The notes beneath the pieces were generated by a model that saw only the letters and a list, made by a program, of their open reading frames with translations, made no database searches and was not told where the DNA came from. From a virus, in the IMG/VR virus record IMGVR_UViG_3300044655_001100, positions 1-64,000 of that record: 64,000 nucleotides of DNA. The stretch is one strand, 5' to 3'. Below, piece by piece: positions 1,327-60,209 of this stretch. Both the position numbers and the translations under genes were made by a program. Each line of letters opens with the position of its first letter. Position 1 is the first letter of the stretch.

Positions 1327-3675
1327 ATGAGTAATCTTCCGATATCGGGCTTGCCAACAGGCTTACCAGTCAGCGACACAGATTTGCTGGCTGATACACA
1401 GGCTAGTGGCACAGGTCCGGTACAGATTACAGCTTCCGGTCTCAAAACCTATATTGGAAATGGGTTGACACTTACGAATGCCGTTATTAACAGCCCGTTC
1501 TCCATCAATGGCGTTAATTATTCTTGGCCATCATCAAACGGGCCTTCTGGTTCTGTCATCACGAATGATGGGGCAGGAAACCTAACATGGTCGCTTAACC
1601 CGCTTGCTGGAACAGTTACATCAGTTAATGTTTCTGGTGGCTTGACAGGTCTGACAACTATTAACGGCCCTATTACTTCTGTAGGCACGATTGACCTTGC
1701 GGGTGTCTTGAATGTCGCTCACGGCGGCACTGGTGGCACAAATCGCACATCAGCGATGATGAATATTCTGCCGCCTATTAGCTCAACGACAGCGGCTTAT
1801 GCCTTATTCAACGATGGCATTGGCACATATTATTGGGCGTATGCAGGTGGTGGTAGCGCACCGGGTGTTCTGAATATTTCTACTGGAACAACTGGTCTGC
1901 TTGCGAACGGTTCATCTGGAAACGTAAACGGAAATGTTCTGCTTAGCGGCGTTTTGAAGGTCAGCAATGGCGGCACTGGTATTTCCTCTCTTGGGGCTGC
2001 TGGTCAAGTTCTGACATCAGACCCACTTATGTCCAATACAACAGCAGTTTGGGACTACCCTAGAGCGGCTGGCGCTGACGGCGAAATCCAATTCAATAAT
2101 GCAGATAGGTTTGCTGCGTCTCCAAATTTTACATTTGCTGACGGTCTTTATGCTACTCTTACTCTAGGCAAATCTGGTTCAGCTAACGGCGATTTGAGAC
2201 TGCAAAATATTTTATCGCCAACTGGACATGTCCGTATTACTGTTGATCCAAATTCGACTACTTCTTGGATGCTTACCCTTCCAACTGATGGCGGTTCAGT
2301 TGGTCAGGTTCTGACGACAGATGGCACGGGAATAACAAGCTGGACGACACCTCCGAGCGGTATCGAAGTCGGCGTCACGACAATCACGAGCGGAACGGCT
2401 GGCTCTATCCCATACAATAACGGAACGGTTTATTCCGAAGACAACGCCAATCTGTTTTGGGACGACACGGCAAAACAACTGTCGATTGGCACAAACACAA
2501 CTGCAACAACCCCCGCAGACATTCAGCTTCAGGTTGTAAAAGATGCGCTGATTGCAGGTATGACGGTTGGTCTGGGCCCTGCTCAGGGTGCGACGAATAC
2601 AGCAGTTGGTAAGTCTGTTCTTGCTGCGAATACGGTTGACGGCAATCTGACAGGCATCGGCGTTGAGGCCCTTACAGCGAATACTAGCGGCATTAGGAAC
2701 ACCGCCGTTGGTTATCAGTCTGCATACAGCAACACGATAGGCAACCAAAACACCGCATTCGGAGCCTATGCTTTATATTACAACGATGCGGACAATAATA
2801 CAGGCTTAGGGTTCCAAGCATGTTCTTTTAATGTTTCTGGGACAAACAACACGGCTGTCGGCGCAAATACATTAGCGGCTTCCGGCGCGGACAGTCAAAA
2901 CACGGCTGTCGGATCAAATGTATTGAATGCGTTTACCGGCGGTAACAACAACACAGCGGTCGGCGCATTTGCAGCGCAGGTTTTGCAGGGCGGCACAGAC
3001 AATACATTTATTGGCGCTAACGCTTCTGGAATTTCAAACACAAGCGTAGACAGAAATACCGGCGTTGGCAGTCGTTCTCTGGAAAATACAAGCAGTAGCA
3101 ACAACACGGCTGTCGGCGTAGAATCCTTACAGTCAAATACTGCAAATACTGGCGGTAACACGGCTGTTGGTTATCGTTCGCTCAGAAACTGTCAGGGAGC
3201 AAGAAATACGTCCATTGGACGCCTTGCGATGTCTTTTGACACCGTAACGGGAGCCGAAAATACGGCGCTCGGCATTAGCGCACTCGGTTCTCTTACCTCA
3301 GGTAATTACAATACCGCCCTTGGAAAAAGCGCTGGTTTTGGCATAACAAGCGGATCAAGCAATACATTAGTCGGTGCATATGACGCTGGTGCGGCCCCAA
3401 TAAGTGGGACGGGAAGCAATTACATTGTTCTGTCTGATGGCGATGGAAACGTCCCAGTTTTTTGGGAAGGCTTAACAAGAAATCAAATTTGCAACGGTCC
3501 TGTTGTAACCCAAGGATATACCGTTGCTGGTTTAGCTGCTATAGCATCTCCTATTGTTGGAATGCGTGTTCATGTGACTGATGCAAATGCTCCATCGTTT
3601 TTGGCAACGCTTGCTGGCGGTGGTTCGATTAGATGCCCTGCGTTTTATGATGGCACAAACTGGGTAGCTGGCTAA
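1327..3675 (+). CDS. Tail fibre protein with NTAVG beta-roll repeats
   Basis: Gly/Thr-rich; xxGGTG and VLTTDGxG segments, then ~20 NTA(V/L)G repeats; ATG at 1327 preferred to TTG at 1321. Confidence 0.8.
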   Translation: MSNLPISGLPTGLPVSDTDLLADTQASGTGPVQITASGLKTYIGNGLTLTNAVINSPFSINGVNYSWPSSNGPSGSVITNDGAGNLTWSLNPLAGTVTSVNVSGGLTGLTTINGPITSVGTIDLAGVLNVAHGGTGGTNRTSAMMNILPPISSTTAAYALFNDGIGTYYWAYAGGGSAPGVLNISTGTTGLLANGSSGNVNGNVLLSGVLKVSNGGTGISSLGAAGQVLTSDPLMSNTTAVWDYPRAAGADGEIQFNNADRFAASPNFTFADGLYATLTLGKSGSANGDLRLQNILSPTGHVRITVDPNSTTSWMLTLPTDGGSVGQVLTTDGTGITSWTTPPSGIEVGVTTITSGTAGSIPYNNGTVYSEDNANLFWDDTAKQLSIGTNTTATTPADIQLQVVKDALIAGMTVGLGPAQGATNTAVGKSVLAANTVDGNLTGIGVEALTANTSGIRNTAVGYQSAYSNTIGNQNTAFGAYALYYNDADNNTGLGFQACSFNVSGTNNTAVGANTLAASGADSQNTAVGSNVLNAFTGGNNNTAVGAFAAQVLQGGTDNTFIGANASGISNTSVDRNTGVGSRSLENTSSSNNTAVGVESLQSNTANTGGNTAVGYRSLRNCQGARNTSIGRLAMSFDTVTGAENTALGISALGSLTSGNYNTALGKSAGFGITSGSSNTLVGAYDAGAAPISGTGSNYIVLSDGDGNVPVFWEGLTRNQICNGPVVTQGYTVAGLAAIASPIVGMRVHVTDANAPSFLATLAGGGSIRCPAFYDGTNWVAG

Positions 3676-47905: not shown

Positions 47906-47934
47906 TGATTACAACGTGTATAATTAGGTGTCAA
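47906..47934 (-). promoter_or_regulatory. Candidate promoter for the recombination operon
   Basis: TTGACA-N17-TAATCA; three TGTAAG repeats just downstream. Confidence 0.45.
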
Positions 47935-48712
47935 GGCGTTTTGTATAATATTCTTCGTGCTTCTTGATAGCCAACCCAATTATCTCTGGTATCTGAGGAA
48001 CTACAGCATTTCCTAGGGCTCTAGTTCTGTCCATCCGGTTGGAAACCCCATGAGCCACTCGATGAATGGCGGGTTCACATGGCCATCCCCCTTTTTCCAT
48101 CCTACGGATAACGCTACTTGTGTACCTAGATGAGAAGACTTTTCTATCGGTCTGAGATCCCCCCGATGATTCTGATTCCGGCATGTCATCCCCATCACCG
48201 AATCCGATGCCTTGGGGGTAGGCCACAATCCAGACTCTCTCACGGATGTGCGGTGCGCCAATGCTGGCCGCCGATATGCTTTCCCATTCTGCGTCATACC
48301 CGATCTCGGCCAAATCTCCGAGAACGGTGTCCATTCCTCTAGCAAGCAACCCTGGGACGTTTTCCACGATGACGTATCTGGGTCGTATTTCGCTAATAAG
48401 TCTGGCGAATTCTGACCATAATCCGCTGCGCTTTCCTTCAATCCCATTTTTTGCGCCAGCTGTGCTAACGTCCTGGCACGGGAACCCCCCACAGATTGCC
48501 TCAACGGTGATTCCGTCTCTTCTAAGTTGCTCTCCTGAAATAGTGGTAACGTCTTCATAAAGCGGAACCTCTGGCCAATGCTTGGATAAAACTTTTTTAC
48601 AAAACGGATCTATTTCACAAAAGGCTACAGTCTGAAAAGCTTGGGACCTTTCGAGCCCCAAGCTAAACCCACCAATGCCAGAAAATAAATCAAGCAGTTT
48701 TATAGGAGCCAT
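47924..48712 (-). CDS. DNA (cytosine-5) methyltransferase, catalytic chain
   Basis: LDLFSGIGG, GFPCQDVS, ENV, RERVW, LGNAVVP; start at 48712 coupled (TGATG) to the ATPase gene. Confidence 0.9.
   Translation of the reverse strand: MAPIKLLDLFSGIGGFSLGLERSQAFQTVAFCEIDPFCKKVLSKHWPEVPLYEDVTTISGEQLRRDGITVEAICGGFPCQDVSTAGAKNGIEGKRSGLWSEFARLISEIRPRYVIVENVPGLLARGMDTVLGDLAEIGYDAEWESISAASIGAPHIRERVWIVAYPQGIGFGDGDDMPESESSGGSQTDRKVFSSRYTSSVIRRMEKGGWPCEPAIHRVAHGVSNRMDRTRALGNAVVPQIPEIIGLAIKKHEEYYTKRLDT
48013..48558 (-). CDS. Nested alternative-frame MTase small chain (TRD plus motif IX)
   Basis: GAGGT SD; LWPTP...VNPPFIEWLMGFPTGWT, a motif IX-like block missing from the main frame. Confidence 0.7.
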   Translation of the reverse strand: MKTLPLFQESNLEETESPLRQSVGGSRARTLAQLAQKMGLKESAADYGQNSPDLLAKYDPDTSSWKTSQGCLLEEWTPFSEIWPRSGMTQNGKAYRRPALAHRTSVRESGLWPTPKASDSVMGMTCRNQNHRGDLRPIEKSSHLGTQVALSVGWKKGDGHVNPPFIEWLMGFPTGWTELEP

Positions 48713-58360: not shown

Positions 58361-58387
58361 GCCGCTCCTCCCAGAGCGGCCTTTTTT
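58361..58387 (+). terminator. Rho-independent terminator
   Basis: GCCGCTC-CTCCCA-GAGCGGC-CTTTTTT. Confidence 0.75.
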
Positions 58388-59691
58388 CACATAATTGCTT
58401 TGATCACCTCTGCCGCCAATTGCGGTACGATAGCATTGCCTAGGGCTTTTAGCTTTGCGGCTCTTGCTTCTGCTTTCGTGATGAGGAGCGGGATGGAGGG
58501 GCGCAATCCATCCATTCCTTCGGGAACCCCATGAGCCAAGCCACAAAGTCCGGATTGAGGGAACCACGGGGCTCGTCTGGTTTTTCCGTCGGCTCCTGTG
58601 ATCCAGATTGAATCTCTCCAATATGAAGAGACGCTATTGTTGAAACAGTAGCTCCTCGGTTTTGTCCCAGCCAAGAGCTCCCCGCTTCTGCTATGCTCTG
58701 AGCATTCGATGGGCCTTGATGGTTCTCGTTCGCTCTTGGTGTCGGCCAGGGAGCCGTATGTTGGTAGATCTCCTCTGATAGATATCCTGTCGTCCTGCCT
58801 GTCGCTGCTCTGGACGGACGTAATCCCTTCCGGTCCGCTGCGTCCGATGTTGTTGGTGTCGGCCATGTCGCTGCAGTCAGTAGCGCTGCTTCCGATAGAT
58901 TCTTCTGTCTGCCCTGATCCCATCGTTTCAGAGCTTTCTGTGGATCGCTGTATTCCCCGCCGCCCTTCTCTCTGCAATTCGGTGTCGGCCATGTCGAATG
59001 AATTGCTACTTGCTGGCCCAGTGTCGCTGTTTCCGGCCTCAACATTCGACTGGGAGGTATTGACGATCCGTCTTTCCAATCCCTCGCTCTGGGCGTTGTC
59101 CAGGTTCCTGCCTGAAAGCTCAAAGCCGATCCCCCTTGAGCATATTTCTTTTTTCTCATTCCCTTGTCGTCTGCGCATGGTGTTGTCCATGCTAACCCAA
59201 TAGAGTCTCTCTCTGATGTGAGGCGCATTGACCGAACATGCGCTAAGATTAAACGCTTGGCAGGAGTAGTCTTGACTTTCCAGATCATCGAAAACTCCAT
59301 CGAGCCAATTGAGCCCAGCTGCGCCACCAACTTGCTCTCCGATGGCGACAGGCGGTCTACATGCACTGATGAGTCTATAAAGGTGAGGCCAAAGATGCCG
59401 CTCATCGGCTTCCCCTTTCCCTTTCCCTGCAACGGAGAAAGGCTGACAGGGGCAGCTTCCTGACCAGATTTCCCGGTCCGATGGGAATCCTGCGAGTTTA
59501 AGGGCAAGTGGAAAGCCGGCGATTCCACAGAAGAAATGGGCTTGGACAAATCCTCTGACATCATCAGGCTGAATAAGCTGAATTGGTCGGCTGTCGATTT
59601 CACCATCTGGTATTAACCCCTTTTTAATAAGATTTTTTATCCATTCTATGCAGTATGGTTCAATCTCATTATAAAAATTCCATTTTTTCAT
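58387..59691 (-). CDS. DNA (cytosine-5) methyltransferase, catalytic chain
   Basis: YNEI; HFFCGIAG; SCPCQPFS; GEQV; HIRERLYW; LGNAIVP. Confidence 0.88.
   Translation of the reverse strand: MKKWNFYNEIEPYCIEWIKNLIKKGLIPDGEIDSRPIQLIQPDDVRGFVQAHFFCGIAGFPLALKLAGFPSDREIWSGSCPCQPFSVAGKGKGEADERHLWPHLYRLISACRPPVAIGEQVGGAAGLNWLDGVFDDLESQDYSCQAFNLSACSVNAPHIRERLYWVSMDNTMRRRQGNEKKEICSRGIGFELSGRNLDNAQSEGLERRIVNTSQSNVEAGNSDTGPASSNSFDMADTELQREGRRGIQRSTESSETMGSGQTEESIGSSATDCSDMADTNNIGRSGPEGITSVQSSDRQDDRISIRGDLPTYGSLADTKSEREPSRPIECSEHSRSGELLAGTKPRSYCFNNSVSSYWRDSIWITGADGKTRRAPWFPQSGLCGLAHGVPEGMDGLRPSIPLLITKAEARAAKLKALGNAIVPQLAAEVIKAIM
58449..59606 (-). CDS. Nested alternative-frame MTase chain with five W(P/T)TP modules and motif IX
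   Basis: 385 stop-free codons; five W(P/T)TP; LNPDFVAWLMGFPKEW. Confidence 0.75.
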   Translation of the reverse strand: MVKSTADQFSLFSLMMSEDLSKPISSVESPAFHLPLNSQDSHRTGKSGQEAAPVSLSPLQGKGKGKPMSGIFGLTFIDSSVHVDRLSPSESKLVAQLGSIGSMEFSMIWKVKTTPAKRLILAHVRSMRLTSERDSIGLAWTTPCADDKGMRKKKYAQGGSALSFQAGTWTTPRARDWKDGSSIPPSRMLRPETATLGQQVAIHSTWPTPNCREKGGGEYSDPQKALKRWDQGRQKNLSEAALLTAATWPTPTTSDAADRKGLRPSRAATGRTTGYLSEEIYQHTAPWPTPRANENHQGPSNAQSIAEAGSSWLGQNRGATVSTIASLHIGEIQSGSQEPTEKPDEPRGSLNPDFVAWLMGFPKEWMDCAPPSRSSSRKQKQEPQS

Positions 59692-60209
59692 TTTTTGTTT
59701 CTCTGAAAATTATATGATTTAATTATCCAATCCTTAAAGTTTTGTATAGGCATATCATTTTTTGCTCTGTTACAAATCATGCAACAAGAAACACAGTTAT
59801 TTTTGTCATATCCATCTGTATTTACTACTCTATCAACTCCTTTTGAGGGATTTGTACCACAATAATGGCACTCACCCCAAAAAAAATGTTCAAATTCTTC
59901 TTTTGTAATATTCCATAAATAATTTCTTTTTTCAGCGCTTTTTCTATAATTATAAAATGCTTCATTGATAATAACTGTATCTTTTGACATACGTTCTCTT
60001 CCTACCCATGCCAATTTACGAGAGCAGGATGCACATGAGAAAACATTTCCCAATGCTAGTTTACTAAACCTTACTTTCCTTAGATTTCCGCAATTACATC
60101 TGCACAGTGCTATTGGAGCATTAGATTTTGATCCATCGTAACATTCAATTACTCTTAACTTACCAAACATCATTCCTAGTTTTATGTCGTTCTTTATTCC
60201 TCTAGCCAT
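59688..60209 (-). CDS. HNH-type homing endonuclease
   Basis: FGKL.V...CRCNCG; CHYCG...GVDR.....GY...NCVSCC..CNRAK. Confidence 0.8.
   Translation of the reverse strand: MARGIKNDIKLGMMFGKLRVIECYDGSKSNAPIALCRCNCGNLRKVRFSKLALGNVFSCASCSRKLAWVGRERMSKDTVIINEAFYNYRKSAEKRNYLWNITKEEFEHFFWGECHYCGTNPSKGVDRVVNTDGYDKNNCVSCCMICNRAKNDMPIQNFKDWIIKSYNFQRNKK

Follow-up and report, generated by a model that had tools for sequence, protein, structure and literature searches.

The window, a stretch of 64,000 nucleotides of viral DNA, carries a gene in which two overlapping reading frames on the same strand are open (Table 1). Frame A codes for the alpha chain, which contains the catalytic core of a cytosine-5 methyltransferase (C5-MTase), and frame B, nested entirely within it and spanning 1158 of its 1305 nt, codes for a putative beta chain. 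The upstream ORF ends in a TGA that shares bases with the alpha ATG at 59691 (sequence ATGA), and the beta ATG lies 85 nt downstream of the alpha start behind a Shine-Dalgarno-like (SD) word. In relatives, the first frame-B ATG falls 79-136 nt past the alpha start, and 48 of 76 loci have an SD-like word ahead of it, compared with 22% for positions chosen at random; the beta start position is common to 9 of 29 aligned homologues. Much of this layout had been claimed in an earlier note made from the letters alone, and it was recovered here. Specifically, the two stop-free frames match in ORF coordinates, lengths and +1 offset, motifs I, IV, VI, VIII and X are all read in frame A and motif IX in frame B, the variable region of frame A is indeed low-complexity Ser/Arg filler, the five W(T/P)TP units of frame B start 4-8 nt from the positions given earlier, the motif IX-like end of frame B is a canonical motif IX, and the unit boundary is repeated three times in the DNA.

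Table 1. Features of the two-frame methyltransferase gene, in positions of the window.
Feature	Position	Strand	Details
Frame A ORF (alpha chain)	58387..59691	(-)	434 aa; basis: ORF list
Frame B ORF (beta chain)	58449..59606	(-)	385 aa, +1 relative to frame A; basis: ORF list
AAGGGG, Shine-Dalgarno-like	59617..59622	(-)	10 nt upstream of beta ATG (59604-59606)
Alpha 1-174, catalytic core with motifs I, IV, VI, VIII	59170..59691	(-)	aligns to M.HhaI residues 71-176
Alpha 175-355, filler rich in Ser, Gly, Glu and Arg; the cassette array as read in frame A	58627..59169	(-)	pLDDT 33-56, conservation 0.09-0.36
Alpha 356-434, conserved hairpin, L-A-H-G-V-P segment, motif X GNAIV (58426-58440), C-terminal helix	58387..58626	(-)	
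Beta 1-86, Ser/Pro-rich leader over alpha motifs I-IV	59349..59606	(-)	low pLDDT
Beta 87-139, conserved helix and hairpin (GSxxxxxxWKxKxTPxxR...RTS) over alpha motifs VI-VIII	59190..59348	(-)	pLDDT up to 90
Cassette 1, W140-T168, WTTPCADD..., type T07	59103..59189	(-)	W140 at 59189; 16 members in other arrays, at first, middle and last positions
Cassette 2, W169-T205, WTTPRARDWKD..., type T104	58992..59102	(-)	W169 at 59102; rare type in the sample
Cassette 3, W206-T247, WPTPNCREKGGGEY..., type T15	58866..58991	(-)	W206 at 58991; 9 members
Cassette 4, W248-P286, WPTPTTSD...RPSRAATGRTTGYL, type T05	58749..58865	(-)	W248 at 58865; 26 members, at first, middle and last positions
Cassette 5, W287-I329, WPTPRANE...GSSWLGQNRGATVST, type T03	58620..58748	(-)	W287 at 58748; 28 members, 15 last and 13 middle
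Beta 330-385, linker, motif IX (L350-W365, 58512-58559), basic tail	58449..58619	(-)	conservation 0.84, pLDDT 68-85

Alpha matches Pfam PF00145 with 65.4 bits (cut-off 22), over residues 69-237 only, and phrog_363 at 8.3e-67. Direct reading of the sequence places motifs I (F53-F60), IV (P81-C82-Q83), VI (G118-E-Q-V121) and VIII (H158-I-R-E-R162) in a core whose conservation across 70 homologues is 0.62-0.94, and motif X (G418-N-A-I-V422) near the C-terminus. Between VIII and X, alpha has neither motif IX nor a target-recognition domain (TRD), and the interval is taken up by disordered filler (S 17%, G 10.5%, E 10%, R 9%). Modelled alone with AF2, the chain forms an M.HhaI-like large domain (core pLDDT 86-96) and is disordered from about 186 to 360; accordingly, M.HhaI is the best PDB match of the predicted alpha in Foldseek (E 1.7e-8, probability 1.00, ~172 aligned columns). 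Towards its 3' end, frame A again carries conserved residues: the DNA of the frame-B W-L-M-G-F-P, when read from one base before, gives the L-A-H-G-V-P segment, and conservation is seen in both frames. Residues 391-405 of alpha form a 15-residue insertion that is found in this gene specifically.

Beta matches phrog_1008 at 5.7e-29, all but one of its 172 homologues are without any Pfam domain, and none of the 34,896 representative clusters (50% identity) matched by its profile carries a name. A PDB profile search gave 0 matches of beta to solved structures, and a search of the ESM Atlas returned viral 'hypothetical protein' clusters only. The C-terminus reads as L-x-P-x-F-x-x-W-L-M-G-F-P-x-x-W and has the strongest conservation of the 3' region, and the helix and hairpin at residues 87-139 are conserved in all homologues; the mean pLDDT of beta modelled alone is 54.

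The coexistence of the two frames was compared with random codon choice by resampling, in which one protein is held fixed and synonymous codons are redrawn 5000 times. With alpha fixed, frame B stays stop-free over codons 29-170 in 0.04% of the draws (mean 5.5 stops); with beta fixed, frame A stays stop-free over the array in none of the 5000 (mean 12.4 stops), and the third frame at this locus has 8-11 stops. As read from the coding sequence, codon choice keeps frames A and B both open, and both are under selection. The pattern extends to related viral loci: at all 54 where motifs IV and X could be located, frames A and B have 0 stops and the third frame has 3-22, motifs IV and X falling in frame A and WLMGxP falling in A+1. 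These loci were sampled through the beta profile, so that loci having lost beta would escape the sample. The same layout is also present in three cultured or complete phages, among them Komagataeibacter phage phiKX1, and cultured phages of Xanthomonas, Burkholderia and Klebsiella are candidate further carriers. A search of the longer homologues for one-chain fusions in a single frame turned up nothing but a longer beta of 761 aa without a Pfam domain, and two sequences in which the alpha N-terminus is joined to beta by a shift or deletion (P0118 and L080) were taken as mutants or assembly errors.

The co-folding of the two chains and the comparison with M.HhaI, proposed in the earlier note, were performed on alignments built in this analysis and yielded an M.HhaI-like alpha fold and an ipSAE of 0.88 in three runs, against 0.03 for the best of 3 controls; of 80 solved complexes, 58 attain that mark, as do 2 of 110 mismatched pairs. 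The pLDDT of the partner was 47-48, and the agreement of contacts between runs was at least 34%. The interface comprises residues 87-125, 135-140 and 346-373 of beta and residues 13-26, 57-62, 127-166, 355-375 and 398-433 of alpha; within its confident part, beta 87-139 faces alpha 127-166, while the lowest-error contacts of beta 330-385 are with alpha 413-424 and 17-26, and alpha 356-434 touches the beta motif IX. The models thus predict an alpha/beta enzyme whose chains bind via the beta motif IX and a second conserved element, with beta 87-139 predicted to dock on alpha, but the score may stem from the model's memory of one-chain C5-MTases. No cassette is placed confidently, so the co-fold is silent on which cassette sits at the DNA.

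The region between the docking element and motif IX of beta is filled by five cassettes of five different types, ~30-42 residues in length. At the DNA level, the repeated boundary GGTGTCGGCCA has exactly 3 copies in the gene (58738, 58855, 58981), two of which are identical over 16 nt, and no other perfect copy in the window; when 1 mismatch is allowed, the window holds 5 matches against 0.59 expected, a number reached in 0 of 100 shuffles. Among 185 beta proteins, ~35-40 cassette types are recurrent. Of 175 distinct arrays, a single one repeats a type, whereas shuffling gives 12.6 +/- 3.2 and none of 2000 shuffles came down to that level, and 15 of the 21 co-occurring type pairs are seen in both orders; judged from the sampled arrays, cassette order is free. 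Moreover, separate loci have 100% identical alpha cores, yet different cassette arrays, and in near-identical genes the DNA identity collapses exactly between WxTP anchors. The idea that the array is expandable and changes at a conserved unit boundary is borne out by anchor-to-anchor indels and replacements between near-identical genes, and from these alignments the cassettes are discrete exchangeable units that are gained, lost and swapped at WxTP anchors. Their fold is predicted without confidence (pLDDT under 50), every cassette finishing in a short helix with the next anchor following. The cassettes (141-345) are poorly folded and outside the confident interface, so that a role in DNA recognition is deduced from where they lie in the chain; in that position, they probably read DNA.

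The window also holds, at 47924-48712, a paralogous two-frame methylase gene whose beta has one cassette. This cassette type stands alone at two loci of the sample (L087 and L088) and within longer arrays at two others (L102 and L121); as a one-cassette beta exists and the same type occurs inside longer arrays, one cassette is apparently enough.

The arrangement is probably that of a two-chain cytosine-5 MTase made from overlapping same-strand frames, in which beta is the recognition subunit with exchangeable cassettes. One mRNA with two completely overlapping frames would give rise to two chains. Alpha would be the AdoMet-binding, catalytic large domain, with motifs I-VIII followed by a disordered tether that ends in motif X and that would exist only because the underlying DNA encodes beta. 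Beta, translated from its own ATG and SD, would supply the parts that alpha is without: its helix-hairpin would dock beside alpha motifs VI-VIII and its motif IX would pack on alpha motif X, and the two chains together would rebuild the large-domain/small-domain architecture of the M.HhaI type. The cassettes would come from a large shared repertoire and be exchanged, added and removed by recombination at WxTP anchors, a turnover that may retune recognition while the catalytic chain is constant.

What the array recognizes can be stated more tentatively. As far as sequence rather than methylation goes, the data fit one cassette conferring one specificity and thus a multispecific enzyme guarding the phage DNA against several restriction systems, which is a possibility rather than the expectation; the non-redundant types, the free order and the one-cassette relatives bear on it indirectly. 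More speculatively, each WxTP cassette might be an autonomous reader, giving about five unrelated site classes here and letting phages re-arm against host restriction by anchor-to-anchor exchange within a gene that has to be open in both frames; relatives carry up to 11 or more cassettes and, if the cassettes are autonomous, would methylate many more site classes. The gene would then encode a natural, modular, re-programmable recognition subunit, of a kind lying hidden and unannotated in the second frame of phage methylase genes that number in the tens of thousands.

It is rather unlikely that the five cassettes instead fold as one composite DNA-binding domain with one specificity, which could be longer, degenerate or relaxed, so that their number and type tune one site and add no independent ones. 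The short helix and following anchor of each cassette are as in solenoid-like repeats, arrays sampled through the five-cassette query have two or more cassettes, and the cassettes do not resemble the autonomous TRDs of SPbeta, all of which would suit such a domain; still, the one-cassette beta in the same phage, with its type recurring in longer arrays, argues against it, as do the free order and the unrepeated types, since a packed repeat domain would more likely fix the order. Improbable, too, is a beta that binds alpha while its array serves another role, as a hypervariable surface against methylase-sensing host defences or for some other substrate. Very fast turnover beside a constant core is also typical of arms-race surfaces, and the cassettes have neither a confident fold nor a known homologue; however, the array occupies the TRD place of all C5-MTases, between the element that follows motif VIII and motif IX, and its non-redundant composition fits distinct recognition functions.

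The remaining alternatives do without a separate beta chain. Two programmed ribosomal frameshifts, from A to B after motif VIII and from B to A before motif X, would restore motifs I-VIII, TRD, IX and X in one polypeptide, and both the A, B, A order of the motifs and the two rare variants that join the alpha N-terminus to beta in one frame are what such a product would call for. It would need, however, neither the 180 open filler codons of frame A nor the 130 upstream codons of frame B, both of which are kept open, against expectation, at all loci scored. Beta also has a conserved ATG of its own with an SD, and its residues 87-125, whose codons precede the point where the shift would occur, are conserved, have a confident predicted fold and belong to the interface, all of which makes this reading very improbable. 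Least credible is that only alpha is made and frame B is an untranslated by-product or the relic of a frameshifted ancestral gene, as public annotation, which mostly lists a single frame, might suggest, against a canonical motif IX, discrete conserved cassette types, the strongest 3' conservation, a frame open at all loci scored where 0.04% would be expected, and an alpha with no recognition domain by itself.

The two-chain reading combines features of systems that are known separately. In the multispecific MTases of Bacillus phages, the enzyme is a single polypeptide read in one frame, and the specificity of each TRD has been demonstrated experimentally. For these C5-MTases of temperate phages (M.SPRI, M.Phi3TI, M.SPBetaI), the reference is Trautner et al. 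1996, listed as ref. 31 in PMC12707154. The gene described here shares with them one catalytic core and short tandem modules between motifs VIII and IX, non-redundant and flexible in order, but places the modules on a separate chain in an overlapping frame, and its cassettes have no detectable similarity to the SPbeta variable region. In particular, hhalign of the beta profile against the SPBc2 (SPbeta) multispecific MTase gave a probability of 0.03, the one match, insignificant and 11 residues long, pairing WK..T of beta with the FKWP element that follows motif VIII. The earlier proposal that the gene unites M.EcoHK31I and Bacillus-phage features is supported for the nested frame and for the expandable tandem array; the separate specificity that it envisages for each unit is a possibility.

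M.EcoHK31I is the closest published case. In this enzyme, which comes from E. coli HK31 and recognizes YGGCCR (Lee, Kam and Shaw 1995, as described in PMC2836561 and PMC3404938), the TRD is on alpha and a short beta has motif IX only. It is a C5-MTase whose two polypeptides have to come together, with beta fully inside the alpha gene in another frame; here, too, the beta frame is nested and provides the motif IX that alpha is without, and the two chains are predicted to associate. The two are set apart in that beta here is 385 aa long and bears a docking element, all the recognition-like cassettes and motif IX, while the VIII-X region of alpha is disordered filler with no TRD. M.AquI (CYCGRG) is, as described in PMC3404938, a natural two-subunit C5-MTase likewise split in the variable region, but its subunits come from non-nested genes and its small subunit has motifs IX and X, whereas here the genes are nested and motif X stays on alpha. 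M.HhaI (PDB 2uyc, 10mh, others) is a single-chain enzyme whose one TRD spans ~85 residues; the predicted alpha fold and motifs IV-VIII match its large domain, and the beta L-x-P-x-x-x-A/W-x-M-G-F/Y-P-x-x-W/Y corresponds to its motif IX. A two-subunit methyltransferase of Stx phages (bioRxiv 10.1101/2023.09.20.558713), with adjacent non-overlapping genes and an RNA target, was set aside. The literature search, with most subscription journals outside its coverage, retrieved M.EcoHK31I and M.AquI and found no description of this family.

If the two-chain reading is true, annotation consistently misses half of a cytosine-methylase gene class that is very common in phages and prophages, with beta-like proteins in ~35,000 clusters that have neither a name nor a Pfam family. 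Few same-strand dual-coding arrangements in DNA viruses would then be as long or as widespread, and as both products would belong to one enzyme, it would be a strong test case for overlapping-gene evolution. The recognition part of a C5-MTase would reside on its own chain as an array of swappable cassettes, with a bearing on phage escape from restriction and on phage methylome prediction, and it would be a possible natural scaffold for altering methylation specificity.

Lastly, the paralogous gene in the window matches phrog_363 at 8.5e-83 (alpha) and phrog_1008 at 2.8e-25 (beta), and its single cassette resembles cassette 2 (E 0.005); one phage with one- and five-cassette versions offers a built-in experimental comparison.

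The alpha and beta chains would be read from two minus-strand open reading frames (ORFs) whose overlap is nearly complete: frame A codes for the predicted catalytic chain of a C5-methyltransferase and frame B for a nested putative chain that carries WxTP cassettes. Specifically, motifs I, IV, VI, and VIII are present in frame A, in which the Pfam match (PF00145) is limited to residues 69-237. Frame B returns no family in a Pfam search, matches phrog_1008, contains five W(T/P)TP units (first residues W140, W169, W206, W248, and W287), and closes with a canonical motif IX (L-N-P-D-F-V-A-W-L-M-G-F-P-K-E-W). The two-frame gene with five units described in the earlier note is therefore borne out, with unit positions a few bases off, and so is its threefold boundary DNA word, as GGTGTCGGCCA has exactly three copies, at 58738, 58855, and 58981, with identity reaching 16 bases in two of them. 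The openness of both frames is maintained by codon choice, because genes resampled with one protein held constant and synonymous codons redrawn per the window's own codon usage (5000 draws) are almost never stop-free in the other frame. With alpha constant, 0.04% of draws leave frame B free of stops across alpha codons 29-170, the mean being 5.5 stops; when beta is kept constant instead, frame A is stop-free across the cassette array in 0/5000 (mean 12.4 stops), and the third frame contains 8-11 stops, near expectation.

Features of the two overlapping methylase genes and of the ORF preceding alpha
Feature	Position	Strand	Description
Frame A (alpha) ORF	58387-59691	minus	434 aa
Frame B (beta) ORF	58449-59606	minus	385 aa; phase one base downstream of frame A
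Motif X, GNAIV	58426-58440	minus	frame A, beyond a 180-residue Ser/Gly/Glu/Arg-rich stretch
Cys-rich ORF	59688-60209	minus	173 aa; CxxC pairs, HYCG...NCVSCCxxCN; HNH-like by eye
alpha2	47924-48712	minus	phrog_363, 8.5e-83
beta2	48013-48558	minus	181 aa; +1 frame; phrog_1008

A tblastn search with frame B found the layout also in a podovirus, a cyanophage, and Komagataeibacter phage phiKX1, which are publicly annotated as a single frame or fragments only, and a scan of IMG/VR returned at least 470 loci with a frame-B relative. Frame scoring, done on the 54 fetched loci whose motifs IV and X could be found by pattern, placed these motifs in one frame and WLMGxP in the +1 frame in 54/54, with 3-22 third-frame stops from IV to X and none in frames A and B. 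The other fetched loci have a like arrangement with variant motifs, except for the viral locus L080 and the protein P0118, each of which could be a mutant, an error of assembly, or a rare fused form. Motifs I-IV of the alpha N-terminus in L080 (2000-3450) and motifs I-VI in P0118 share one frame with beta through a one-base shift or deletion, and the fused chain lacks motif VIII. A profile built from 84 beta sequences matches 34,896 representative clusters with an E-value cut-off of 1e-3; with a cut-off of 1e-30, 9,438 remain. The 172 direct beta homologues are named only 'hypothetical protein' and, P0118 excepted, none has a Pfam domain; a search among longer proteins found no fused one-chain form. 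At 58512-58530 and in relatives, one stretch of nucleotides encodes L-A-(H/D)-G-V-P in frame A and, shifted by one base, W-L-M-G-F-P in frame B, and across the ~45 codons preceding motif X both readings are conserved simultaneously.

Splitting 185 beta proteins at the WxTP anchors gave 740 units (median 36 residues), and clustering on the sequence beyond the anchor gave ~35-40 types with at least five members, counts that are indicative, as they depend on our clustering threshold and the sequences are related. The window's five cassettes are five distinct types (T07, T104, T15, T05, and T03), four of which are common and are seen elsewhere at first, middle, or last array positions. A type is repeated in 1 of 175 distinct arrays versus 12.6 +/- 3.2 in shuffles (0/2000 so low), and the order is free, with both orders seen for 15 of 21 co-occurring type pairs. 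Moreover, cassette types are decoupled from the core (mean Jaccard index 0.18 at 90-98% alpha-core identity), and identical alpha cores carry differing arrays in locus pairs such as L046/L051, L011/L053, and L023/L062. L023 and L062 are 100% identical outside one 99-nt indel running exactly from anchor to next anchor, and in L046 and L051 a block beginning at an anchor has been replaced, with ~100% identity on either flank; these breakpoints and the core-independent arrays support the earlier note's proposal that recombination at the conserved boundary adds and removes units. Any cassette inserted must be stop-free in frame A as well.

The window contains a second two-frame methylase, alpha2/beta2, whose PHROG pair is that of alpha/beta (phrog_363, phrog_1008) and whose frames are both open against expectation (codon resampling, P = 0.002 and 0/5000). 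A 623-aa ORF lies upstream, and its stop codon overlaps the alpha2 ATG (TGATG). Beta2 has one WPTP cassette, then motif IX. Judging from sequence comparison, a single cassette seems sufficient for a working enzyme, because the beta2 type is the sole cassette in two related loci (L087, L088) and occurs within longer arrays in two others (L102, L121), which favours cassettes as self-contained units. Multispecificity of the enzyme is a tentative reading, to which we give somewhat less than an even chance; alternatively, the cassettes may form a composite recognition domain, or may serve a role other than site choice. No similarity of the cassettes to the SPbeta variable region or to solved structures was detectable.

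Modelled alone, alpha has an M.HhaI-like large domain (residues 1-180, pLDDT 86-96; M.HhaI is the top Foldseek match, E 1.7e-8), disordered residues 186-360, and a confident C-terminal helix; confidence in beta is limited to a helix plus hairpin at residues 88-125 and to motif IX at 340-370. The alpha/beta co-fold, which had our own alignments as input and may reflect memory of one-chain C5-methyltransferases in the model, scores 0.88 in three runs versus at most 0.03 in three controls, a mark attained by 58/80 solved complexes and 2/110 mismatched pairs, with a partner pLDDT of 47-48 and contact agreement between runs of at least 34%. The confident interface comprises beta 87-125, 135-140, and 346-373 and alpha 13-26, 57-62, 127-166, 355-375, and 398-433; the model supports a clamping of two conserved beta elements onto the alpha catalytic domain, with motif IX facing motif X, and places the cassettes without confidence. 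The ATG of beta is 85 nt past that of alpha, and AAGGGG precedes it at a spacing of 10 nt; the first frame-B ATG of relatives follows the alpha start by 79-136 nt, and an SD-like word precedes it in 48/76 loci versus 22% at random positions. A single chain made via a double frameshift is unlikely, because the open frame-A filler and 130 open upstream frame-B codons would be needless and the product would omit beta 87-125, which is conserved, folded, and part of the predicted interface. The stop codon of the preceding ORF and the alpha ATG overlap (ATGA), and this overlap translationally couples the Cys-rich ORF, which has no Pfam match at E < 0.01, with the alpha start.

The Bacillus-phage multispecific enzymes carry tandem TRDs within one chain, whereas here the cassette array is on a nested second chain. 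The closest published case is M.EcoHK31I, in which a beta chain nested in another frame within the alpha gene likewise provides motif IX, but the TRD is on alpha (PMC2836561, PMC3404938); M.AquI is split, yet not nested (PMC3404938). The gene described here unites nesting with a cassette array, and its entire putative recognition part is on beta. No published description of this two-frame methylase family was found in the literature covered, outside which most subscription journals lie. A Stx-phage two-subunit methyltransferase is unrelated. In the phiKX1 locus (L003), an HNH-endonuclease-like ORF (2524-3042) lies between the end of beta and alpha motif X, its end duplicates the beta tail (W-D-x-C-A...SSRKSR), and frame A continues unbroken past it, to 548 aa; by its sequence, it looks like a homing-endonuclease insertion with the alpha frame preserved.
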